A stretch of DNA of 64,000 nucleotides, from assembly GCA_963697165.1 (NCBI GenBank), contig CAVOMX010000018.1, positions 1 through 64,000 on the forward strand. The letters are read 5' to 3'. This document shows, one piece after another, positions 3,294 through 55,223 of the stretch. The stretch comes from Candidatus Bathyarchaeota archaeon (GTDB taxonomy: Archaea > Thermoproteota > Bathyarchaeia > Bathyarchaeales > Bathyarchaeaceae). How positions within the stretch are numbered: the first letter of the stretch is position 1; the number at the start of each line of letters is the position of its first letter. The notes beneath the pieces are model-generated. The model searched no databases. It saw only the letters and a program-made list of their open reading frames with translations, and was not told the origin of the DNA. The position numbers and the translations under genes were made by a program.

Positions 3294-4499
3294 ATGACAA
3301 ATTTTAAACCAAATAGAAAGTCTATCATGGTCGCACTGACACTTATAATTATGGCTAGTTTAATCGTAGCCATCCCCGGTCAAGCAAAGCCGACAGTAGA
3401 AAAAAGAGTTGGTTTAGTAAAAACTATAGAGATAGAACCCCTTGGTCAGATTACCGATGCGGTAAAAGATACGTTAGAGTTTGATACTGCCAATGGTGAA
3501 TACCCTAACATCATTTACCTCTCAGGAGATGTATACGCCATAACCTATACGGGTGATGGAAATGATGGATATTTAAAAACGGTAGAGATTGCTACTGACG
3601 GTGAGATGGATATGGTGATAGATACGTTAGAATTTGATACTGCCAATGGTGAGTACCCTAACATCATTCACGTCTCAGATAATATCTACGCCTTAGCTTA
3701 TCAGGGTAAAGGCAATGACGGTTTTCTGAAGACAGTGGAGATAACTCCCAGTGGTCAGATTACCGATAAGGTGATCGACACCCTGGAGTTTGATCCAGTT
3801 GTTGCCACAACACCCAATATCATTCCTGTTTTAGGTAATATATTTGCTATAGCTTATTGGGGTGAATACGGTGATGGTTTCCTTAAGACAGTAGAGATAG
3901 ATACCTCTGGTCATATTACTGATGTGGTAATAGATACGTTAGAGTTTGATACAGTTATGGGCTGGTACCCTAACATCATTCAAATCTCAGATGAAGTATA
4001 CGCCATAACCTATGCAGGCATTTACGAATATGGATACTTAAAGACAGTAGGGATTGCTACTACCGGTGAGATTGCGGATACGGTAATAGATACTTTAGAG
4101 TTCGATTCGACTATTGGCACAACTCCCAATATTATCCATGTTTTAGACGATGTCTATGCTATAGCCTATGAGGGACCCAGTGGCAATGGTTTCCTTTCGA
4201 CAGTAGGGATTGCTACTGACGGGAAGATTGCGGATACGGTAATAGATACATTAGAGTTCGATAATGGCAATTGCAAGTTCCCTAACATAATTTATGTTTC
4301 AAACGATGTCTATGCTATAGCCTATGAGGGACCCAGTGGCAATGGTTTCCTTTCGACAGTAGGGATTGCTACTGACGGTGATATTGATACGGTAAAAGCT
4401 ACTTTAGCGTTCGATTCGACTATTGGCACAACTCCCAATATTATCCATGTTTCAGACGATGTCTATGCTGTAGCATATACCCAAGTATCGAAGGGATGA
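3294..4499 (+). CDS. Secreted protein with seven ~52-aa repeats, probable 7-bladed beta-propeller
   Basis: N-terminal signal peptide; seven copies of KTV.I...G.I.D.VIDTLEFD......PNII......YAI.Y. Confidence 0.8.
   Translation: MTNFKPNRKSIMVALTLIIMASLIVAIPGQAKPTVEKRVGLVKTIEIEPLGQITDAVKDTLEFDTANGEYPNIIYLSGDVYAITYTGDGNDGYLKTVEIATDGEMDMVIDTLEFDTANGEYPNIIHVSDNIYALAYQGKGNDGFLKTVEITPSGQITDKVIDTLEFDPVVATTPNIIPVLGNIFAIAYWGEYGDGFLKTVEIDTSGHITDVVIDTLEFDTVMGWYPNIIQISDEVYAITYAGIYEYGYLKTVGIATTGEIADTVIDTLEFDSTIGTTPNIIHVLDDVYAIAYEGPSGNGFLSTVGIATDGKIADTVIDTLEFDNGNCKFPNIIYVSNDVYAIAYEGPSGNGFLSTVGIATDGDIDTVKATLAFDSTIGTTPNIIHVSDDVYAVAYTQVSKG
4147..4378 (+). repeat. Exact 76-bp intragenic direct repeat (4147-4222 = 4303-4378)
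   Basis: acgatgtctatgctatagcctatgagggacccagtggc...actgacgg occurs twice, offset 156 bp (52 codons). Confidence 0.9.
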
Positions 4500-4997: not shown

Positions 4998-7139
4998 TTA
5001 TGACCAAACATGTAACATTGTTGCATCAATCGCCCAGCTATCTTGCGTTAAATCGTTTGTTTCGGTTCCACCTTTGAATCTAATAGTAAGCGTTGGAGAT
5101 GTGAGATAGGATGTAATTGTAGCGTTATTCCATCCGTTTGCTAGATCTGTGAACAAATTTTGCCAAGTTGAACCGTTCCATATATCAACTCGAATATTCT
5201 CAGAAGGAAATGCTTCAAAAGCTACATCTGATGAGAACGAATAACTTCCAGATGCAGAGCCATCGCTATTACTAGGTCCAATGTCACTAAAATTATTATT
5301 AAGGTTGAAGTAAGACATTAGATTAGATTCAGATCCATTCACTTCTGTATCATAATCGCTTTGTATTTCCTCCGAGGTTCTATCGATACTCCAGTATCTT
5401 AAATCATCGCCATACCCATCTGTAGGAACTGAACTACCACGTGAATTCATAAAATTATTTTCTGTTACGCCAACGGTTGAAATATTATTCGTCCAAGTGG
5501 AAATATGAGTATCTTCCATCGGAACATTATTTTCATCTCCAACGTAAAGGTATAAATTGTCAGTATCCTCATTCCAAACAATCGCTATGAAATACCAAAT
5601 ATTAGTTTCAAAATTGGTATTACTTTCAATAGTAATGGTGCTTCCCCAATCCACCCAAAGACGATTTTGCACACCTTCTTCAGTTGCATATGTACTGATA
5701 CTTGTTTCCATATTTTCGTGTTGCCCCCAAGGTCTTGGTCTAATTGGTCCGGTACCAAAAGTATCCCATTTTATCCAAAACGATATTGTACCTTTTGAGG
5801 AGCCCCAATCCGGTGTTCCATCTCCAACAATCATGTAACCACCTGTAGCATCAAAGGAATGTGTATTGTTACCCTTTTGGATACTTATTGCCAACTCTTC
5901 ATTAGTTTGGCTAAACTCTACATTTGTCCATTGAACTTCTAAATCGAGCTGATAGTCGTCTAATATGGCGTAGGCAACTCCTTCCGGAGATGTTCCTGGG
6001 CGATCCCAATTGTTTATTTCAGTACCATTGGTATAGTATTCGTAAAGAGAATCTGTAGAGCCACTGACAATCCATAGGTGCCCTGAAACAATATCATAAG
6101 CGATACCCGTAGGATCTGTGAAACTCCAACTGGTTTGAATGTTCCCATAAATGTCTATTTGATAAACTGTATCACTTCCCTCGTCAGTTGCCCAGAGGTA
6201 TGATCCATCCCAGGCCAAACCCGTGCAATAAGAGATGCCACTGTAAGAAAATGATCTTTCAGCAACTGTCGGGTTAGCGGGGTCCACTTGGTAGATTAAA
6301 TCATCACTACGGTCAGCGATAAACCATCTTGAACTATTCCAAGCCAAACCCTCAGCATCACCAGAGTATCCCGAAATACTCCATCGGGTTAGTTCTTCAC
6401 CGGTATTTGCATTAAACTTGATGAGAGAATCAACACCTGATCCTTTATCAACCAAATAGATGTATTCATTTCCATATTCAAATCTATATTCTAATCCATA
6501 CGGATAGGATGTACCAGTATCCCAGCTTAGAATCTCAGTTCCATTAGGATCAGATTTGTTGTGCTTACTAACAAAGTCGTTATCACCAGAAATCCAAATA
6601 TATTCATTAACTCCCAGGAAGCCTTCTTCTGTCAAAATATCGTAAGTTGAATCAGGGCCATATTGTTGGGCCGTAAAATTTGAGTGAACACCTTTATCAG
6701 CAGACCCATCTACGTCACTTGTATTATTGTCTACAAAATCAAACAAGTTGGCAACTGAATCAAGTATTGTCTGAAATATGTTATTGCTTTGTTGTTCGTA
6801 CACATAAGCGTAAGTGATGAATGGTGATGAAAACAATAACAAACACATAATCCAAACTAATGCTCTTTTTTGATTTAACTTCTTTTTATTGTTTCCACTT
6901 AAATTACTTGTTTTTTCCGTTTTTAGATTTCTTATTCCCAAATACAAACAGTAAGCTGAAAAAAAAGAAGCAGTAATTACCAGAAATAAAATAGTAACAA
7001 AATCTGGGAAACGAGAGGGAAACAAGTTCATTTGTATGCCTATTGTATAATCTAAGAAGTTTATTATTGATGCTATCCAAGAGACCATAAGACCTAGAAA
7101 AATGACTGTGAGCGCTTTATTTGGCATAAACTTGGACAT
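4998..7139 (-). CDS. Membrane-anchored surface protein: 3 TM, beta-propeller repeats, LamG/ConA-like domain
   Basis: Three hydrophobic N-terminal segments; GLAW/GIAY/GVAY repeats; TISFWIK...WYFIAIVW...DDLRYW LamG signature. Confidence 0.8.
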   Translation of the reverse strand: MSKFMPNKALTVIFLGLMVSWIASIINFLDYTIGIQMNLFPSRFPDFVTILFLVITASFFSAYCLYLGIRNLKTEKTSNLSGNNKKKLNQKRALVWIMCLLLFSSPFITYAYVYEQQSNNIFQTILDSVANLFDFVDNNTSDVDGSADKGVHSNFTAQQYGPDSTYDILTEEGFLGVNEYIWISGDNDFVSKHNKSDPNGTEILSWDTGTSYPYGLEYRFEYGNEYIYLVDKGSGVDSLIKFNANTGEELTRWSISGYSGDAEGLAWNSSRWFIADRSDDLIYQVDPANPTVAERSFSYSGISYCTGLAWDGSYLWATDEGSDTVYQIDIYGNIQTSWSFTDPTGIAYDIVSGHLWIVSGSTDSLYEYYTNGTEINNWDRPGTSPEGVAYAILDDYQLDLEVQWTNVEFSQTNEELAISIQKGNNTHSFDATGGYMIVGDGTPDWGSSKGTISFWIKWDTFGTGPIRPRPWGQHENMETSISTYATEEGVQNRLWVDWGSTITIESNTNFETNIWYFIAIVWNEDTDNLYLYVGDENNVPMEDTHISTWTNNISTVGVTENNFMNSRGSSVPTDGYGDDLRYWSIDRTSEEIQSDYDTEVNGSESNLMSYFNLNNNFSDIGPSNSDGSASGSYSFSSDVAFEAFPSENIRVDIWNGSTWQNLFTDLANGWNNATITSYLTSPTLTIRFKGGTETNDLTQDSWAIDATMLHVWS

Positions 7140-7254
7140 TTACAATTCTCTCTCATTGTGACATTAGATATAATGCCGATTTGAAATGAATATAAGCACT
7201 ATGAATTATCAATCATGAATCCGAATTCATAATGCTTTATTATGAAAACCTTCA

Positions 7255-7794
7255 TTGTTTTCTATTGTGATGCGTATGCAAAAAAGATTTTCAGGATTAG
7301 CATTCATTGTTCTTAGTATACTAATTGTTTCAGTATCAGCTTATGTGTTTGAATCAGCAAGTCAAACAGTAACACAAACAGTTAAAGACGTTGCCACAAT
7401 AACTATACAAAATTCTGCCTTAGGCAATATCAACGAAGGAGAAACAATTGCATATACAAAAACTGAAGTTTCAGAACTTGGAGACGCAATTAGTATTGTA
7501 ACTACAAGTGCAGAATCGAATGTCTATCTTCACTTGGACAGCGATATAGATAGCCTAAGCAGCTACTATTCAACGTATAATATTGTAGTGAAATTTGCTA
7601 CTGTTGTAGGCAGTACATATTCAGTGGATGACACTGCCTGCACACTATCACTCGGCTCTCCTGACTATAGCTCAATTGACTTAGATGCAGCTGGAACATG
7701 GACTTTTGATTTCGAAATAACAACCACCGCCAGTCAAGTAAGTTCTGACCAACCAACAACAGTAACTATAGTTACCACCGCTGAAAGCACTTAG
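7255..7794 (+). CDS. Secreted Ser/Thr-rich beta protein, candidate fibre/pilin-like subunit
   Basis: Signal peptide ending VSA-YVFE; acidic, Thr-rich mature part; likely start is the ATG at 7276. Confidence 0.6.
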   Translation: MFSIVMRMQKRFSGLAFIVLSILIVSVSAYVFESASQTVTQTVKDVATITIQNSALGNINEGETIAYTKTEVSELGDAISIVTTSAESNVYLHLDSDIDSLSSYYSTYNIVVKFATVVGSTYSVDDTACTLSLGSPDYSSIDLDAAGTWTFDFEITTTASQVSSDQPTTVTIVTTAEST

Positions 7795-8177
7795 TGATGG
7801 AATCTATATTGTTTTCAAAAATTAAAGTGGTGTATGCCACTTTTCTTTTTTCATTTAGCATCTGGTTAATATTAATCTTCATTTATGGTTTTCCTTCGAT
7901 AAATGGAGCGTTACAAGTCGAAATCTTAAGTCCTGCTTTACTAACCTTTTTGGTTGGGTCAGCAATAGTAGCTTCAGTTTCGTGTTTGCTGATTGGACTG
8001 CATATGTTTGGTTTAAAAACTGAAACAAAAAAGAAGGTAACAGAAGAAAAAGACAGCAGTATTAATGATTTAAACTTGCCAACTGAAGAGATTAGAACTA
8101 ATACGTTAAACATAGAAGATGATTCCGCTACAGAACCTGAAAAAACAAGGAAAAAACCAATAATCCCGCATGCTTAA
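7794..8177 (+). CDS. Two-TM membrane protein with charged tail
   Basis: Two hydrophobic helices; overlaps the upstream stop; resembles the N-terminus of 4998-7139. Confidence 0.65.
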   Translation: MMESILFSKIKVVYATFLFSFSIWLILIFIYGFPSINGALQVEILSPALLTFLVGSAIVASVSCLLIGLHMFGLKTETKKKVTEEKDSSINDLNLPTEEIRTNTLNIEDDSATEPEKTRKKPIIPHA

Positions 8178-18059: not shown

Positions 18060-19534
18060 TTAATAGTCTAAGTATTTCATTATTTCCCATGGAGTTACAT
18101 ATAGACAGTATTGGTTCCAGTCGTTGGTCTTGTAGTCTATGAATGCATCGAATATGTGACTTCCAAGAGTCTTATGGACCACTTCGTCGCTCTTCATTGA
18201 CTCTAGAGCATCTCTTAGGGTTGTTGGCAACTCCTTAACGCCAAGTGCATTTCTGCGTTCAGTGCTCATCTCGTAAATGTCCTCGTCAACAGGGTCACCT
18301 GGATCAAGTTTCTTCTTTATGCCATCAAGTCCAGCCATCAAGACACATGACAGAGCCAAGTATGAGTTGCATGATGGATCAGCGGAACGTAATTCAGCTC
18401 GTTTTGCTGCAGCATGCTCGGGACCTTTGAAGTATACTGGAACCCTAATCATTGCTGATCTGTTTCGGCGAGACCACATAATGTAGATTGGTGCCTCAAA
18501 ACCGGGTACAAGTCGCTTGTATGAGTTTACTGTGGGACAAGTTTATTGCGGTTATTGCTCTGGCGTGTTCTAGCAAGCCTCCGATGAAGTATCTGCCGGT
18601 TTGGCTCATTTCAGCATAATCGTCTTTTTCGTCATACATTGCGTTAGTTTTGCCCTTTCCAAAGAGAAGCATGAACGTGCATGCCGCTGGCGTTGTCAAG
18701 GTAAACTGGTTTAGGCATGAAAGTTGCGATTAATTCATGCTTTTTTGCAACGTTTTTGGCTACGAATTTGTAGAGTAATGTCCTGTCAGCTGTTTTCACT
18801 AGTTCTCCATATTTGAAGTCAATTTCGATCTGTCCTGCAGTTGCAACTTCGTGGTGGTGCATCTCAATTTCTGTGTCAAAGTTTTCTTCAAGTATGTGTG
18901 CAACTTCGTTTCGGTACTCAACAGTTGTGTCTTCTGGTGGTGGTCTGAAATACGCCTCTTTTGGTCTAAGAATGTGAAGCCTCCTGGCGTTGTTTCTGCG
19001 GATTTTGGTACAACTCGTGGTGCTCCCCATGAGTCTCCTGCACCGCCTTTCGGGCTTACCCACATGTCCCAAACAAGGGTTGTTGGATCAATTGATTTGA
19101 AGACGAAGTATTCTAGTTCTGGACCGAAAAAGCTGGTATAGCCCATCGTCTTCTGCTGCTTTTACGGCGTTTCTTGCTACGTATCCTCTTGGATCTACGA
19201 CTGATGGCTTTGTGCCTCCAAAAGCTTCGTAAACGTCTCCTAGGATAATTGCGCTTTTTTGTATTTCGTCGGTTGTCCACGGGATAATGTATAATGATGT
19301 TGGGTCTGGTTTTAGAATCATGTCTGATTCTTCTATGGTTTTGAAACCTCGTACAGATGATCCGTCAAAGCCGATGCCTGCTGTTAGAGCTTGTCCTTCT
19401 GTGAAGTGTTTTGCTGGTATAACTACATCTTGCATTAGACCTCGGATGTCTACGAAGGCTGTATGTACCCATCGTATTTTGTTTTTTTTCAGGGTTTCTC
19501 TAGCTGTTGTAATTGCATCCATGTTATTCACCAT
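18060..19534 (-). CDS. glnA: Glutamine synthetase type I, split by several frameshifts
   Basis: [63 protein letters not shown]. Confidence 0.95.
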
Positions 19535-33334: not shown

Positions 33335-35680
33335 TTGACCAAAAAAACTACACACATAAAAATAGAAGAATTGAAGACAGATCTTGGCATCATAAAGAAT
33401 CTTGAAGTCTCTATTGGCAACATTGTCGATGAAACTTGGGACGAGCAAGAGGGTCCAACCCCCTTTCCTTCCACAGTTGATCTAAGAGAGTGGGACTTCA
33501 AATTATTGGAGCGTTATAAACCATTTTATCTACCATTCTGCGATGTCTGTTGTCTATGTACTTTCGGCAAGTGTGATCTATCAGGAGACAAACGCGGAGC
33601 CTGCGGATTAAACATGGCTGCTCAACAGTCAAGGATTGTTCTCCTTGCTTGTTGTATTGGAGCTGCTACCCATACGGCTCATGCTAGACACTTAGTTGAC
33701 CATTTGATAGAAAAATATGGACGAAACATTCCTCTTAACCAAGGTGGCTTAAACATAGACATAGATGCTCCTGTGACCTGTCTAGTCTGTGGTATCAAAC
33801 CTAAAATCCTAAAGGACGTGGAAGAAGCCCTAGACTGGGCAGAAGAACAAGTTACACACTGCCTTTCTGCTACACACACTGGACAAGAAGGAGGCAACCT
33901 AGACTTTGAGTCAAAAGCTTTCCACGCTGGGATGGCAGACCAAGTCGGAATGGAAATCGCAGATTTGATCCAGATTTCGGTTCTCGGTTTTCCAAAAGCT
34001 GATCCTGAAGCTCCACTTGTAGAATTGGGGTTTGGAGTAGCTGATGTTAAAAAACCAACAATTCTTGTAATTGGTCACAACGTTCCATCAAGCGTTGGAA
34101 TAATTGATTACATGACAAAAAATAAGCTAATGGATAAAGTAGAAGTTGTAGGAATCTGTTGCACAGCCCACGACCTAACACGATACAATCCTTCAGCTAA
34201 GGTAGTTGGTCCAATTTCTTGGCAACTAAAATACATCAGAAGCGGATTGGCCGACCTTATTGTCGTTGACGAACAATGTATCAGAGCAGACACACTAGAA
34301 GAAGCGCAAAAAGTCAAGACTCCAGTAATCGCATCAAGCCCCAAAAACTGTTTGAATCTCCATAACAGAACCAACGACCAAGTAAAAGAACTTGTAGTTG
34401 ATTTAATTGAAGGCAAGGTTCCTGGTGTGCTCATCTTAGATCCCGACAAGGTTGGAGAAGTTGCTGTTGAAGCTGTTATGGTTGTTGCACCGAAAAGAAA
34501 CAAGTTCAGTATTATTCCTGGCATCGAAGAGATAACAGCTGCAGGTCAAGCGTGCACCGGATGTAACGAATGTATACGGGCATGTCCAAACAATCAACCA
34601 ATTCCTGAAGCAATGAAAGCAGCAGCTGAAGGCAACCTTAAACCCTTTGCTGAAATTTTCGATAACTGTGTAGGATGCGCTCGTTGTGACAGTGCATGTC
34701 CCAAAGATTTTCCTCTTCACAGCTTTATGGTGAAGGCCGGAGAAGACAAATCATTAAGCGAAAAATTCATGATGCGCTCTGGACGGGGAGCTATTCAAGA
34801 CATAGAGATCCGAAACGTTGGAGGCCCAATAGTTCTCGGTGAAATTCCTGGAGTCGTCGCTATAGTAGGTTGTGCCAATTATCCTGATGGCAACGAAGCA
34901 GTTGCAGAAATCGTTGAAGAGTTCGCGAAACGCAGATACATAGTTGTCCTCTCCGGATGTGCAGCTATGTCCGCAGCCATGGTAAAAGATGAAGAAGGAA
35001 AAACTGTTTACGAGAAATATCCTGGCGGATTTGAAGCTGGAGGCGTCCTAAACGTTGGATCATGTGTTTCTAACCCTCACATAGCAGGTGCAGCAATCAA
35101 AATTGCAAGCATCTTTGCGAAACGGAATCTACGAGGTAATTACGAGGAAATCGCTGATTATATTCACAACCGAGTTGGAGCTGTCGGACTCGCTTGGGGT
35201 GCAATGTCCCAGAAGGCAGCGTCAATAGCTGCAGGTTTCTGGAGACTTGGAGTGCCTGTAATCGTTGGTCCACATGGATCTAAGTATAGACGTATGCTTC
35301 TTGGACGAGCAGACAAAAAGGAAGATTGGTACGTATACGATGCCAGAACAGGTGACAAAGTTTACGCCGGTCCAACCCCTGAGCACCTATTCACTACTGC
35401 TGAAACTAAGGAAGAAGCAATTGTGATGATAGCAAAGCTCTGCATGAGACCTAACGACACCACTAGAGGTCGCGGCATGAAATTGACTCACTACATTGAC
35501 CTGCACAAACGCTACTATGGTGTTATGCCTCATGATATACACCTGTTTATCAGAAACAGGATGGACATACCCATCACCATGAAACCTGAAATCCTCAAAA
35601 TCCTCGAAGAAAAGGATTGGAAGGAGACGAGAATTCCAGACCCAACTCTACTAAAAAGAATGATTAGGAAAAGAGGTTGA
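33335..35680 (+). CDS. cdhA: CO dehydrogenase/acetyl-CoA synthase alpha subunit, copy 1
   Basis: CDVCCLCTFGKC, GHN, GICCT, two 4Fe-4S motifs, GSCVSN, SQKA. Confidence 0.96.
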   Translation: MTKKTTHIKIEELKTDLGIIKNLEVSIGNIVDETWDEQEGPTPFPSTVDLREWDFKLLERYKPFYLPFCDVCCLCTFGKCDLSGDKRGACGLNMAAQQSRIVLLACCIGAATHTAHARHLVDHLIEKYGRNIPLNQGGLNIDIDAPVTCLVCGIKPKILKDVEEALDWAEEQVTHCLSATHTGQEGGNLDFESKAFHAGMADQVGMEIADLIQISVLGFPKADPEAPLVELGFGVADVKKPTILVIGHNVPSSVGIIDYMTKNKLMDKVEVVGICCTAHDLTRYNPSAKVVGPISWQLKYIRSGLADLIVVDEQCIRADTLEEAQKVKTPVIASSPKNCLNLHNRTNDQVKELVVDLIEGKVPGVLILDPDKVGEVAVEAVMVVAPKRNKFSIIPGIEEITAAGQACTGCNECIRACPNNQPIPEAMKAAAEGNLKPFAEIFDNCVGCARCDSACPKDFPLHSFMVKAGEDKSLSEKFMMRSGRGAIQDIEIRNVGGPIVLGEIPGVVAIVGCANYPDGNEAVAEIVEEFAKRRYIVVLSGCAAMSAAMVKDEEGKTVYEKYPGGFEAGGVLNVGSCVSNPHIAGAAIKIASIFAKRNLRGNYEEIADYIHNRVGAVGLAWGAMSQKAASIAAGFWRLGVPVIVGPHGSKYRRMLLGRADKKEDWYVYDARTGDKVYAGPTPEHLFTTAETKEEAIVMIAKLCMRPNDTTRGRGMKLTHYIDLHKRYYGVMPHDIHLFIRNRMDIPITMKPEILKILEEKDWKETRIPDPTLLKRMIRKRG

Positions 35681-35685
35681 TAAAA

Positions 35686-36231
35686 ATGAGCGCAAAAGCA
35701 GAACCTTGGCAAACAGCAGAAATTGCAGGGCCACAAAAGGCTCTTGTAATTATGAAACCTGAAGTAGCCGCGGCAATGATAAAACGGGCAAAACGCCCCA
35801 TCATCATTGTTGGGTACTTGGCCACCAAAACTGACAAAGACACTGGCACAATGATCAACTACGCCATTCGCCTAAACAAAGATGCAGGCATCCCAGTTGT
35901 TGCAACCGCACATACGATAAAGGAATTTGTGAAACAAGGATTTGAGCAAGCAACACAGATGAACGCCATGGATATTGGCAACCGACTAAAAGACCCAACA
36001 TGGAATGGCTTAGACGGAAAAGGTCTATATGACCTCGCGCTGTTTATGGGACTACCATATTACATGGAATTCGTAATCTTATCAGGACTAAAACACTTCT
36101 CGACAAATCTTAAGACCATTAGCTTGAATCGATACTATAATCCCCATGCAAGTTGGTCTTTCCCAAACCTCAAAGTCGAAGAATGGACTCAAAGTTTTGA
36201 AACAATAATAAAAAATTTAGGAAGAAAATAA
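35686..36231 (+). CDS. cdhB: CODH/ACS epsilon subunit, copy 1
   Basis: AEPWQTAEIAGP, KRAKRP, W.GLDGKG.YD, ASWSFPN. Confidence 0.93.
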   Translation: MSAKAEPWQTAEIAGPQKALVIMKPEVAAAMIKRAKRPIIIVGYLATKTDKDTGTMINYAIRLNKDAGIPVVATAHTIKEFVKQGFEQATQMNAMDIGNRLKDPTWNGLDGKGLYDLALFMGLPYYMEFVILSGLKHFSTNLKTISLNRYYNPHASWSFPNLKVEEWTQSFETIIKNLGRK

Positions 36232-50934: not shown

Positions 50935-53280
50935 TTGGCTAAGAAAGGTTTAGTTGTTAAAGCAAAAGAACTGAAAACAGATGTTGCTATAGTAAAGGAT
51001 CTTGAAGTGTCCATCGGCAAAATTGTTGATGACACTTGGGAAGAGCCTATGGGTCCAACCCCTTTCCCTTCAATGACTGATTTGAGAGATTGGGACTTCA
51101 AACTTCTGCAACGCTACAAACCCTTTTATCTACCCTTCTGTGATGTCTGCTGTTTATGCACTTTCGGAAAATGTGACCTGTCAGGAGACAAACGAGGGGC
51201 CTGTGGATTAAACATGGCTGCTCAGCAGTCAAGGATCGTTCTCCTTGCATGCTGTATCGGAGCCGCCACACACATTGCACATGGTAGACATTTAATTGAA
51301 CACTTGATAGAAAAATATGGACGCGACATTTCCCTTGACCAAGGAGGCTTAAACATAGACGTAGAAGCTCCTGTCACTCGTCTAGTCTGTGGAATTAAAC
51401 CTGAAACGCTCAAGGATTTGGAGGAAGCCTTAGACTGGTGTGAAGAACAAGTTACAAATTGTCTTTCTGCAACTCACACAGGGCAAGAAGGAAACAACAT
51501 AGACTTTGAGTCAAAAGCTTTCCATGTTGGAATGGCAGACCAAGTTGGAATGGAAGTAGCTGATATAGCCCAGATTTCGGTTCTCGGTTTTCCAAAAGCT
51601 GACCCTGAAGCTCCACTTGTAGAATTGGGCTTTGGAGTAGCAGATGTCAAGAAACCAACAATTCTTGTAATTGGTCACAACGTTCCATCAAGCGTTGGAA
51701 TAATTGATTACCTGACCAAAAAGAAGCTAATGGATAAAGTCGAAGTTGTAGGAATCTGTTGCACTGCCCACGACCTAACTCGATACAGTCCTTCTGCTAA
51801 GGTTGTTGGTCCAATTTCTTGGCAACTAAAATACATCAGAAGCGGACTAGCTGACCTGATTGTCGTTGACGAACAATGTATCAGAGCAGATGCTCTGGAA
51901 GAAGCACAAAAAGTCAAAACTCCAGTAATCGCATCAAGCCCCAAAAACTGTTTGGGTCTCCAAAATAGGACCAACGACCCAGCGAAAGAACTTGTAGCCG
52001 ATTTAGTGGAAGGCAAAGTTCCTGGTGTGCTCATTTTAGATCCTGACAAGGCTGGAGAAGTTGCTGTTGAAGCTGTTATGGCTGTTGCACCGAAAAGAAA
52101 CAAGTTCAGTATAATTCCTGATATCGAAACGATAAAAGCTGCAGGTGAAGCATGCAGCGAATGTAATGAATGTATACGCGCATGTCCAAACAATCAACCA
52201 ATTCCTGAAGCAATGAAAGCCGCAGCTCAAGGCAACCTTGATCCATTTGCTGAAATTCTCGATAACTGTGTAGGATGTGCCCGATGTGACAGTGCATGCC
52301 CCAACGATTTCCCACTCCACAGCTTCATGGTGAAGGCCGGAGAGAAAAAGTTGTGGGAAGAAAAGTTCATGATGCGATCTGGACGCGGTGCCATACAAGA
52401 TATTGAAATCCGAAACGTTGGAGGTCCTATAGTTCTCGGAGAGATTCCAGGAGTCATAGCCATAGTGGGATGTTCCAACTATCCTGAAGGTGGCAAAGCA
52501 GTGGCCGAAATCGCTGAAGAATTCGCGAAACGCAGATTCATAGTTGTCCTCTCTGGTTGTGCAGCCATGTCTGTTGCGATGGTAAAAGATGAAGAAGGAA
52601 AATCTCTATACGAGAAATACCCTGGTGGCTTCGAAGCTGGAGGTATCCTGAACGTTGGTTCTTGTGTCTCTAACTCTCACATAGCCGGTGCAGCAATCAA
52701 AATCGCAAGCATCTTCGCAAAACGTAACCTACGCGGTAACTACGAAGAAATCGCTGATTATATCCACAACCGTGTTGGAGCTGTTGGACTTGCTTGGGGT
52801 GCTTACTCCCAAAAAGCAGCTGCAATAGCTTCCGGTTTCTGGAGACTTGGAGTTCCCGTAGTGGTTGGTCCACATGGATCCAAGTATAGGCGTATGCTTC
52901 TTGGAAGAGCAGATAACAAGGAAGATTGGTATGTTTATGATGCCCGAACAGGCGACAAAGTTTACGTTGGTCCTGCTCCTGAGCATCTGTTTACAACTGC
53001 AGAGTCCAAGGAAGAAGTTATGGTGATGATGATTAAGCTCTGTATGAGACCAAACGACACCACTAAAGGTCGCAGTATGAAGTTGACTCACTATATTGAC
53101 CTGCACAAACGCTACTATGGTGTTATGCCTGATGACATACACCTGTTTATCCGAAACAAGATGGACATACCCATCACCATGAAAACTGAAATCCTCAAAA
53201 TCCTCGAAGAAAAGGATTGGAAGGAAACAAGAATTCCAGACCCGACTTTACTTAAGAGAATGGTTAGAAAGAGAGGTTGA
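50935..53280 (+). CDS. cdhA: CODH/ACS alpha subunit, copy 2 (main operon)
   Basis: 781 aa, colinear with copy 1, same cluster ligands. Confidence 0.96.
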   Translation: MAKKGLVVKAKELKTDVAIVKDLEVSIGKIVDDTWEEPMGPTPFPSMTDLRDWDFKLLQRYKPFYLPFCDVCCLCTFGKCDLSGDKRGACGLNMAAQQSRIVLLACCIGAATHIAHGRHLIEHLIEKYGRDISLDQGGLNIDVEAPVTRLVCGIKPETLKDLEEALDWCEEQVTNCLSATHTGQEGNNIDFESKAFHVGMADQVGMEVADIAQISVLGFPKADPEAPLVELGFGVADVKKPTILVIGHNVPSSVGIIDYLTKKKLMDKVEVVGICCTAHDLTRYSPSAKVVGPISWQLKYIRSGLADLIVVDEQCIRADALEEAQKVKTPVIASSPKNCLGLQNRTNDPAKELVADLVEGKVPGVLILDPDKAGEVAVEAVMAVAPKRNKFSIIPDIETIKAAGEACSECNECIRACPNNQPIPEAMKAAAQGNLDPFAEILDNCVGCARCDSACPNDFPLHSFMVKAGEKKLWEEKFMMRSGRGAIQDIEIRNVGGPIVLGEIPGVIAIVGCSNYPEGGKAVAEIAEEFAKRRFIVVLSGCAAMSVAMVKDEEGKSLYEKYPGGFEAGGILNVGSCVSNSHIAGAAIKIASIFAKRNLRGNYEEIADYIHNRVGAVGLAWGAYSQKAAAIASGFWRLGVPVVVGPHGSKYRRMLLGRADNKEDWYVYDARTGDKVYVGPAPEHLFTTAESKEEVMVMMIKLCMRPNDTTKGRSMKLTHYIDLHKRYYGVMPDDIHLFIRNKMDIPITMKTEILKILEEKDWKETRIPDPTLLKRMVRKRG

Positions 53281-53285
53281 TAAAA

Positions 53286-53832
53286 ATGAGTGCAAAAGCA
53301 GAACCTTGGCAAACAGCAGAGATTGCAGGACCCCAGAAGGCCCTGGTCATCACCAAACCTGAAATAGCTGCGGCAATGATAAAACGGGCAAAACGCCCAA
53401 TCCTCATTGTCGGATACTTGGCCACAAAAACTGACAAAGACACAGGCAAAATGATAGACTACGCCATCCGCCTAAACAAAGCAACTGGTATCCCAGTTGT
53501 CGCAACCGCACATACAATAAAGGAATTTGTGAAACAAGGATTTGAGCAAGCAACACAGATGAACGCCATGGATATCGGCAACCGACTAAAAGACCCAACA
53601 TGGATTGGCTTAGACGGAAAAGGTCCATATGATGTCGCACTGTTCATGGGACTTCCATATTATATGGAGTTCGTGATCTTGTCTGGACTAAAACACTTTT
53701 CCACAAATCTTAAGACCATTAGCTTGGACAGGTACTATAACCCCCATGCAAGTTGGTCTTTCCCAAACCTCAAAGTTGAGGAATGGAATCAAAGTTTTGA
53801 GACAATAATAAACAACTTTAGGAGGAAATTAA
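53286..53832 (+). CDS. cdhB: CODH/ACS epsilon subunit, copy 2 (indel near the 3' end)
   Basis: Close paralogue of 35686-36231. Confidence 0.92.
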
Positions 53833-53836
53833 AAAA

Positions 53837-55223
53837 ATGTCAATGTTTGATGACATCCCAGTGGATGTTGGAGTAATCTATGAAGGAGAAAGAATCCGAA
53901 AAGACAACATGCAAGTAGAACTAGGAGGACCAAAACAGCCAGCAAAGTTCGAGCTAGTGCGCGCAAAGAAAATGGATGAAGTCGAAGACGAAAAAGTAAC
54001 AGTCATTGGTCCTGATCTCAAAGATTTGCCAGAAGGCGGCAATGTTCCCTTCGGTATTTACATAGAAGTTGCCGGCAAAGACATCGAAGAGGACCTTGAG
54101 GGTGTAACAGAGCGCCGAATCCACGAATACCTTAACTTCATCGAAGGAATCATGCACCTAAACCAGCGCTACGACATCTGGATACGCGTAAGCAAAAAAT
54201 CGTTCCAGAAAGGATTGACCTCTTTCACTCACGTTGGAAAAGTTTTGGCAAGACTCTACAAGAGCGAATTGCCCTTCATCGAAAAAATTCAAATCACCTT
54301 CATAACTGACCCTGCAAAAGTTCAGGAAATGTATGATCAAGCAATGGGAATTTATGAAGCCAGAGACGCAAAAGCCAGAGGAATGAAAGACGAAGAAGTT
54401 GATACATTCTACGGATGCACTTTGTGCCAATCCTTCGCGCCAACACACATGTGCGTAATTACTCCTCAACGATACTCTAACTGTGGCTCAATCAGCTGGT
54501 TCGACGGCAGAGCCTCTGCACAGGTCGACCCGAAAGGTCCAGTTTTCGCTATAGCAAAAGGAGAAATGCTTGACGCAGAAAAAGGAGAATTCTCTGGAAT
54601 CAACGAATCAATCAAACAGAAGACTTTGGGTTCAGTTGACAAAGTATGGATGTATACTGGTTTCGGTTATCCACACACTTCATGCGGTTGTTTCGAAGCA
54701 ATGGCATTCTACATCCCAGAAGTAGAAGGTTACGGAATAGTTGACCGAGGATTCAAAGGCGTAACCGTAAACGGACTAGCCTTCTCAACACTAGCAGACT
54801 CTGGCGCTGGAGGTAGACAAGTAGACGGCTTCCATGGTATCGCAATCGAATACATGAGATCACCCAAGTTCCTGCAAGCCGACGGCGGATGGGACCGCGT
54901 AGTCTGGATGCCACAAAGCATTAAGGACCGTGTCAAAGAATTCATGCCCAAAGAAGCTGTTGACAACGTAGCAACAGAAAACGACGCAAAGACAGTTGAC
55001 GAACTAAAGACTTTCCTAAAAGAAAAGAATCACCCTGTTGTCCAAAGATGGAAAGAAGCTACAGCTGAAGAAGCACGCAGCTGAAGGCGAAGAAGCCCCA
55101 GAAACAACAGTATTTCCAGTATCTACAGCAACTGTTTCCACAGGCGGATTCAAGATAATCTTCAAGAACGCCAAAATCCACGCAGAAAAAGTAATCATTA
55201 AACGGGACAAACCAAAAAGGTGA
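53837..55223 (+). CDS. cdhC: Acetyl-CoA synthase beta subunit, frameshift near 55080
   Basis: YEGERIR, FYGCTLCQSFAP, HTSCGCFE, DGGW.RVVW; C-terminal KIIFKNAKIHAEKVII. Confidence 0.95.

Follow-up and report, generated by a model that had tools for sequence, protein, structure and literature searches.

Locus and Question

Do three adjacent genes of a Bathyarchaeia genome encode the parts of a surface filament, and if so, of which kind? Bathyarchaeia are a large, mostly uncultured group of sediment archaea. The genes lie on contig C18 (CAVOMX010000018.1) of a Candidatus Bathyarchaeota archaeon genome (1.99 Mb, 81% complete), whose first 64,000 nucleotides were analyzed and are called the window below. 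They were named A (179 aa), B (127 aa) and C (713 aa), and the three open reading frames (ORFs) were confirmed at the coordinates given in Table 1. An initial annotation, made from the letters alone, had proposed a fibre with A as the major subunit, C as a tip adhesin using the same N-terminal strand, and B as an anchor or assembly factor. A was found likely to be a donor-strand subunit of the type known from archaeal cannulae, and A, B and C were shown to form a real, conserved three-gene cassette.

Fold and Relatives of Protein A

For A, B and C of the window, neither Pfam nor NCBIfam yielded anything above cut-off, and a CBM_6 match of A (21.4 bits compared to a cut-off of 28.9) was discarded once the fold had been searched. 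The Pfam-bearing clusters nearest to A in a protein atlas (DUF1102 and Peptidase_M73, at 0.85) were taken as a lead only and were not used. The AlphaFold2 (AF2) model of A, built on an alignment of 59 sequences (predicted local distance difference test, pLDDT, 89.2), consisted of a signal helix, an unpaired stretch at residues 27–46 that holds the N-terminal strand, and a beta-sandwich at residues 47–178. The unpaired strand of the model is in line with the proposed exchange of strands between subunits.

A Foldseek search with this model placed Hyper2 (E = 2.2e-5), CanX (E = 2.7e-5), CanA (E = 2.9e-4), thread and AbpA as the top five matches, with TasA 14th and Tafi 31st. Exhaustive alignment to 48,161 chains showed the highest similarity to Hyper2 (Z 13.2, root-mean-square deviation 2.5, 136 aligned residues, model residues 28–179 on chain residues 1–147) and to CanX (Z 12.2, deviation 3.3, 142 aligned residues), followed by thread (6.9), AbpA (6.4) and TasA (5.6). 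Only Hyper2 and CanX passed Z 8, and both aligned ranges on the A model include the strand. The fold expected by the initial annotation, a donor-strand fold like those of TasA, CalY and AbpA, was thus found in so far as A matches solved donor-strand filaments; the closest of these are the cannula proteins, and not TasA or AbpA. AbpX was absent among the structural matches listed for the model, and A may still be kin to it.

For comparison on the sequence level, profiles were built from close relatives of A (A1 and A2), from eight distant relatives (A3) and from 14 mixed members including A (A5). CanA was the top match among 177,635 PDB sequences for both A3 (E = 4.9e-4) and A5 (E = 4.2e-4), and a profile–profile comparison of A1 and A3 gave a match at 99.7%. 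Together, the structural match to Hyper2 and CanX and the match of the distant profiles to CanA make a cannula-type donor-strand subunit the likely identity of A. The A3 members (P0166, P0168, P0170, P0175, P0180, P0182, P0188, and P0189) carry a YW.G.Q variant of the strand and bridge A to CanA. When 391 class genomes were searched with A3, only loci of the main family were recovered.

D114, E97, D57, and E116 of CanA are reported to be the acidic residues of the calcium-binding area BA1 defined by nuclear magnetic resonance (PMC12326000). In the alignment of the profiles to CanA, D114 corresponds to D144 (58/59 sequences) and E97 to D126 (44/59), and by position only, E61 (59/59) and D165 (55/59) are further candidates for a calcium site. 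The median mature length in the family is 149 aa; mature A contains 3 K+R (family median 5) and has a pI of 4.05.

The Strand Shared by A and C

Behind their last hydrophobic helix, A and C read 17 residues of which 8 are identical. Pairwise BLAST gave only weak values, both for the strand of A against that of C (E = 0.004) and for the N-terminal transmembrane (TM) pair of C against the 127-aa protein (E = 0.008), and the two resemblances were therefore tested with profiles built without window sequences. For the strand, a position-specific scoring matrix (PSSM) of 15 columns, covering the last signal residue and the 14 residues behind it, was made from 58 relatives of A with the signal helix excluded. 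Among the 1,042,604 sites of the source genome, A (44.3 bits) and C at residue 111 (30.3 bits) ranked first and second, the third-best site reached 14.8 bits, and no third protein carrying the strand tag was found.

In 47 non-redundant pairs, the identity between A and C was 0.50 over the 15-residue segment, compared to 0.20 over the 18 residues ahead of the cleavage Ala and 0.08 over the 20 residues past the segment. What A and C share is therefore the first 14 mature residues and not the signal peptide. In the same pairs, the strand was better conserved in A (0.67) than in C (0.51), and so was the signal helix (0.48 compared to 0.23), with Gly and Ser each kept in 94% of the A helices, which hints at a membrane partner of this helix. 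Ala was found at the predicted −1 position of C in 98% of the pairs, and the segment was always located directly behind the signal helix. Gln41 of the strand was present in all aligned A sequences (59/59) and in all C proteins of the first locus set (17/17). Strands of A and C from the same locus were slightly more alike (0.512) than shuffled ones (0.470 ± 0.011; 1 of 5000 shuffles), by a statistic that ignores relatedness. Position 35 is Ala in 51 of the 59 close members, and the strand of A contains no Gly; at the presumed equivalent of the central strand position, Gly occurs in 8 of 40 rows of a wide alignment.

The class III signal peptide model TIGR02537 matched a control gene of the same genome and none of A, B, and C, so that the three lack this mark of type IV pilins and archaellins.

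Protein B

A hidden Markov model (HMM) of B was built from the 2-TM genes of 11 relatives, the window being excluded, and was run over 21,324 reading frames of the genome. Residues 12–76 of C ranked first (E = 7.9e-7) and B itself second (E = 0.002), followed by a frame with E = 0.01. On these scores, the N-terminal TM pair of C and B are assigned to one unnamed family. Both resemblances from which the initial annotation had started, the strand common to A and C and the likeness of the TM pair to the 127-aa gene, were thus recovered by profiles independent of the window.

Between its helices, B contains a loop of about 18 residues in which Phe/Tyr-Pro is frequent; one Trp of the protein is invariant and one Gly nearly so. 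No family match was found in Pfam or NCBIfam, DUF5305 included, and nothing in the protein atlas. Since its outside loop is short and an outside domain is lacking, B cannot be a groove-bearing anchor, one of the two roles initially offered for it, and a candidate role as a helper inside the membrane is more plausible. Our conjecture is that B may be a partner of the signal helix of A or, by analogy with the 2-TM DUF5305 proteins of AbpX and Tafi loci, a peptidase helper.

B-like genes were also observed in L172 (G093:C176) and L177 (G089:C13), with no A gene in the short flanking stretches covered. The one in L172 has a long coiled-coil-like tail and is located near a gene for a secreted protein truncated at the contig end.

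Protein C and Its Cargo

In addition to the parts listed in Table 1, C contains a basic linker at residues 77–92 between the B module and the third helix. The single-sequence model of C was poor outside residues 215–359 (mean pLDDT 41.5), and therefore no structural call was made for the host domain and the second insert. The best matches of the propeller insert were glutaminyl cyclase propellers, a resemblance that implies no enzyme activity in C. The second insert showed 53–60% identity to the cargo of four other C genes. Its LamG/ConA-like label, taken from a motif pattern, was not confirmed, as Pfam gave no match, the PDB a single weak one (E = 0.013), and the model is of low confidence there. 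Of the propeller/LamG cargo read initially, the propeller with its five repeats is supported and LamG is unconfirmed.

Cargos of at least 100 aa behind the strand were found in 54 cases and fell into 10 groups without matches between groups, none of them being similar to the body of A by sequence. Pfam matches over cut-off were obtained for 5 of the 15 C proteins scanned from the first locus set: LamG with DUF2341 (two), 3-keto-disaccharide hydrolase (two), and CBM96 (one). As far as sequence families indicate, the cargo of C is swappable and often lectin-like. Genome G394 holds several copies of the cassette (L036, L038, and L039) with LamG/DUF2341 cargo, and stops or frameshifts interrupt some of them. 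Short ORFs or remnants that consist of signal and strand with little or no cargo lie beside A in L092, L124, and L051; two of them adjoin an intact convergent C gene and are possible traces of cargo replacement.

The host domain of C was also found in two other proteins of the genome, both with pilin-like N-termini. One (L196; G000:C6:40339–42297, minus strand) matched the archaellin/type IV pilin model TIGR02537 over cut-off, and the other (L195; G000:C24:68171–69940, minus strand) belongs to a cluster that also contains one gene resembling a secretion ATPase and two resembling membrane-platform genes, as labeled by reading of the sequences. The same cargo is therefore joined to two unrelated filament tags, and cargo appears to have been exchanged between type IV pili and the A-B-C system.

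Conservation and Distribution of the Cassette

Relatives of A numbered 244 after clustering at 90% and 69 at 50%, and those with a name were from Bathyarchaeia. Of the 401 class genomes sampled, 17 scored for A, one of them through a false weak match; weak matches in G203 and G038 were set aside after checking or for stops. In a GTDB scan, 14 of 15 full-length loci were from Bathyarchaeia, Bathyarchaeota, or Bathyarchaeum and one from Nitrososphaerales. In a phylum sample of 401 genomes, nothing outside the class was picked up by profile A2, and no relative was found on viral contigs.

Within a first set of 18 loci, a neighboring gene with signal helix, strand, and cargo was found in 17 (all except L040), and B in 17 (no match in L042). 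A second set comprised 95 loci, 15 from GTDB and 80 from metagenomes (the best 80 of 152), a few of which repeat the first set; the weak loci L059 and L060, both bacterial, were left out of the counts. Among loci of the second set with enough flank, B was located directly downstream of A in 67 of 75 and a strand-bearing C nearby in 33 of 40. After reduction to 77 non-redundant A types (90% clustering), the figures were 56 of 63 scorable types for B beside A and 27 of 34 for C. The motif and the gene linkage are thus both conserved among homologs, as the initial annotation would have it. Of the seven loci scored as lacking C, three (L054, L055, and L135) do contain a C with a low score when inspected by eye, and in L056 the C gene scored 10.4 bits; in the other three (L047, L096, and L121), no C was seen.

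No strand match was farther than 2.6 kb from A in the 95 loci, and among 71 strand matches, C was divergent and upstream in 39 and downstream on the same strand in 28. There was usually one A gene per locus. Neither a signal peptidase, such as the SipW-like enzyme anticipated by the initial annotation, nor a fourth recurring gene was found in 113 loci (720 kb; 39 loci of at least 8 kb). B was detected in 17 of the 401 class genomes, 15 of them positive for A, an overlap that is circular because the B profile came from A loci; of the A-negative genomes, however, only two scored, one of them weakly.

Most C genes are unfused. The fusion of B to C seen in the window recurs in L061, L062, L063, L097, and L099, each of which also contains a separate B. 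An assembly artefact was rejected as its cause, as L061 (A 93% identical) has the same fused start.

Comparison with Known Filament Systems

With the cannula proteins of Pyrodictiaceae (CanX, 9H8B; CanA, 7UII; Hyper2, 9BAB/9BAC; PMC12518558), A shares its fold as predicted, the extended strand at the N-terminus included, a similar mature length (about 149 aa compared to 147–149), a Sec-type signal, an aromatic residue near the strand start, and a locus without a chaperone or a dedicated peptidase. Besides keeping equivalents of D114 and E97, it is linked to CanA by a weak profile match. A differs in being only 15–16% identical, in its host (Bathyarchaeia), in usually being a single subunit gene where cannula systems have many paralogs, in having Ala at the likely central Gly, and in not keeping E116. 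It is accompanied by a 2-TM protein and by a cargo protein that has the strand only, neither of which is mentioned in the cannula descriptions of PMC12518558 as far as the available text goes. According to the same text, cannula proteins that an HMM can detect were reported only from Pyrodictiaceae, while Sulfolobaceae and Thermocladiaceae have distant relatives by prediction. These CanX-like proteins come from the same phylum and are predicted to have a distant cannula fold and to be donor-strand polymers; by description, A may be set beside them.

In the TapA-SipW-TasA system of Bacillus, too, a minor protein combines a homologous N-terminal strand with an unrelated body, and the fold is of the same superfamily, that of the TasA-type jelly-roll filaments; TapA, whose N-terminus is homologous to that of TasA, initiates the filaments (PMC10151520). 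The A cassette differs from this system and from loci with PF12389 in having neither SipW nor a PF12389 match. None of 40 A members matched PF12389 (Peptidase_M73) or DUF1102 at E 0.1, PF12389 was absent from the source genome, and its single TIGR02228 gene is on another contig than the cassette. PF12389 genes were present in 10 of the 401 class genomes (L141–L150), several beside signal-peptidase-like genes, and one of these genomes is also A-positive. They were rejected as members of the A family, the best A-profile score being 9.7 bits in the N-terminal part only. Such loci are a second, separate fibre system predicted in Bathyarchaeia, and they likely account for the TasA homologs of B26-1 given in PMC9245690.

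AbpA, thread (Saci_0406), AbpX, and Tafi are archaeal donor-strand filaments, as is proposed here for A, and AbpX in addition resembles A in low pI and in an acidic residue at strand position 4. Thread, AbpA, and Tafi match the structure of A much more weakly than the cannula proteins do. Predicted variable tip proteins, as C would be, occur at both Tafi and AbpX loci, TafC containing a laminin G domain; variable tips alone are thus not new, being already described for AbpX loci (bioRxiv 10.64898/2026.01.04.697558). TafC carries a pilin-like domain, whereas C has, by sequence, the strand alone. Loci of the AbpX and Tafi type often contain a signal peptidase, DUF5305, or a groove-bearing anchor, whereas the A cassette has only B, which unlike TafF lacks an outside domain able to accept a strand. 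Membership in the Tafi/DUF1102 fimbriae is not supported, given the lack of a DUF1102 match in 40 members and of a DUF5305 match for B, the absence of a peptidase from the 113 loci and the Foldseek rank of 31. The A cassette would work like TapA-TasA and like the tip systems of Tafi and AbpX; it is a variant of the archaeal donor-strand filaments with structural similarity closest to cannulae, its polymerization presumed, and it is not a PF12389/SipW locus.

Among the papers listed by literature searches, none describing the A family was found. The string 'Bathyarch' does not occur in the main texts of PMC9245690, PMC11821415, PMC12337348, PMC12518558, PMC12326000, and bioRxiv 10.64898/2026.01.04.697558; the GTDB tree in Figure 6b of PMC12518558 and the AbpX supplements might mark Bathyarchaeia genomes.

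Proposed Assembly and Alternative Explanations

The reading that we favor, and hold to be probable, is a donor-strand polymer of A with C capping its far end. A and C would be exported and cut after Ala, presumably by a single housekeeping signal peptidase, and each A would insert its N-terminal strand into the next subunit to give a surface filament. Because C has the strand but no A-type body, it would fill one groove and accept none, and would sit only at the end with the open groove. The tip adhesin of the initial annotation thus has the anatomy of a cap, and its adhesive function would depend on the cargo: variation of the cargo was observed, and it likely sets what the filament sticks to. 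In the simplest geometry, the filament would grow at its base and C would move outward as the tip, since each strand N-terminus follows a membrane helix. The conserved acidic residues of A likely bind calcium as in cannulae; CanA and Hyper2 assemble from protein made in E. coli when calcium is added. B likely contacts the signal helix of A or recruits the peptidase, which is the least certain of these steps.

Several observations weigh against this reading or against its cannula side. A itself and profiles A1 and A2 match no cannula protein by sequence, and the CanA link of the distant profiles spans only about 67 columns and depends on distant members, CanX reaching just E = 0.46 (A3) and 0.056 (A5). 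Among the BA1 residues, E116 is lost (Ala146), and D57 corresponds to Asn89 (Asn in 37 and Asp in 4 of 59 sequences). The central strand Gly of cannulae appears, at the position presumed equivalent, as Ala35 in A, and a Gly-to-Ala change in the donor strand cripples Hyper2 assembly (PMC12518558). At this position most C strands have Gln, Gly, Glu, or Arg, so that C may not dock exactly like A. The strand conservation among C genes is partly circular because these genes were found with profiles derived from A, and C or B is missing from a number of loci (L040, L042, L047, L096, and L121). A tube in particular is disfavored by charge, the cannula lumen being positively charged (tube about 25 nm) and CanA having 12 Lys compared to the low K+R median of the A family. 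Given a polymer of A, a narrow filament or bundle is somewhat preferred to a hollow tube, which is on the whole rather doubtful. Equally doubtful is the boldest form of the proposal, that Bathyarchaeia of cool sediments build true cannulae, hollow tubes assembled with calcium and to date known from hyperthermophilic Pyrodictiaceae only, from a mobile three-gene kit, with ends capped by a strand-tagged exchangeable adhesin and assembly organized by the 2-TM protein.

The filament could be the same and C a cell-bound nucleator or anchor like TapA, its helix uncut and its cargo gripping the surface of its own cell. The fusion of B to C in the window and five further loci, with three helices in the fused form, would suit such a role, and TapA stays at the membrane, where it starts filaments with its homologous N-terminus (PMC10151520). 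However, the Ala at −1 of C is kept as for a cut signal, fusion is the exception among C genes, and cargo that varies among unrelated folds is more readily explained by targets outside than by a single target on the cell itself, which makes a cell-bound C unlikely. It is less probable again that no long filament exists and that A, in one to few copies, is a carrier or adaptor showing the cargo of C via one strand exchange. The Gly-to-Ala change, which impairs polymerization in Hyper2, and the minimal cassette with mostly one A gene per locus agree with this, whereas the full strand of A, unpaired in the model and better conserved than that of C, and the fact that the best-matching solved structures are polymers argue for the donor-strand polymer.

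Lowest in probability, though close to the adaptor, is an explanation in which the shared segment is no structural part at all and is instead a processing or sorting tag, which a peptidase or B would read and which would have arisen when the beginning of gene A was duplicated. The segment does lie directly behind the signal helix in every case, and the slight excess of likeness between cognate strands could come from shared ancestry or gene conversion. However, a tag of this kind is at odds with signal helices that A and C do not have in common while the strand is common to both, with the overlay of the segment on the cannula donor strand, and with the absence of a dedicated peptidase from 113 loci and of a third tagged protein from the genome.

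If the capped polymer of A is correct, the cassette is a concrete candidate adhesion filament for Bathyarchaeia with a minimal assembly logic of one subunit, one 14-residue tag by which any cargo would be attached, and one small membrane protein; such a tag could be useful for the display of domains on protein nanofibres. A family that models close to CanX and Hyper2 widens the predicted range of the cannula type to Bathyarchaeia, and the cassette bears on the initiation, capping, and cell attachment of polymers of this type. Should the structures be true cannulae, C and B would be the first proteins proposed as cap and as membrane factor of a cannula, respectively.

Gene Models and Neighboring Features

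The features of the cassette are summarized in Table 1. A probably starts at Met6 or Met8, because the alignments of relatives begin at about residues 5–8. The spacer between the divergent genes may be a shared promoter region; a promoter scan, which uses bacterial patterns, yielded 18 matches compared to 17.1 by chance.

Table 1. Features of the A-B-C locus, with positions in the window.
Feature	Position	Strand
Gene A, likely secreted major subunit, predicted cannula-type beta-sandwich, 179 aa	7255..7794	+
A signal peptide, residues 1-29, ending V-S-A; putative cleavage from sequence	7255..7341	+
A N-terminal strand, residues 30-43, YVFESASQTVTQTV; likely donor strand	7342..7383	+
Gene B, 2-TM protein, 127 aa, helices about 12-30 and 49-67; start overlaps A stop	7794..8177	+
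Spacer of 115 bp between divergent C and A-B	7140..7254	.
Gene C, 713 aa, in fused form: B module, then signal-like helix, shared strand and cargo	4998..7139	-
B-family 2-TM module at C N-terminus, residues 1-76	6912..7139	-
C third hydrophobic helix, residues 93-111, ending T-Y-A; likely internal signal peptide	6807..6863	-
C copy of the shared strand, residues 112-125, YVYEQQSNNIFQTI	6765..6806	-
Split host domain of C, piece 1, residues 131-178	6606..6749	-
Split host domain of C, further piece, residues 395-418	5886..5957	-
Split host domain of C, further piece, residues 646-713	5001..5204	-
C beta-propeller insert, about residues 215-393, five repeats of ~43 aa	5961..6497	-
C second insert, residues 425-645; LamG/ConA-like label unconfirmed	5205..5867	-

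Convergent with gene C, a secreted-looking 401-aa protein with repeats of about 54 aa is encoded at 3294–4499 (plus strand); it was without a Pfam or NCBIfam match and is present in one copy in the genome. Elsewhere in the window, glutamine synthetase-like sequence is spread over three ORFs at 18060–19534, and several genes between 45900 and 58500 look split or shortened, which suggests assembly frameshifts in this genome. Two near-identical pairs of CO dehydrogenase alpha- and epsilon-like genes, labeled by reading of their sequences, were observed at 33335–36231 and 50935–53876.

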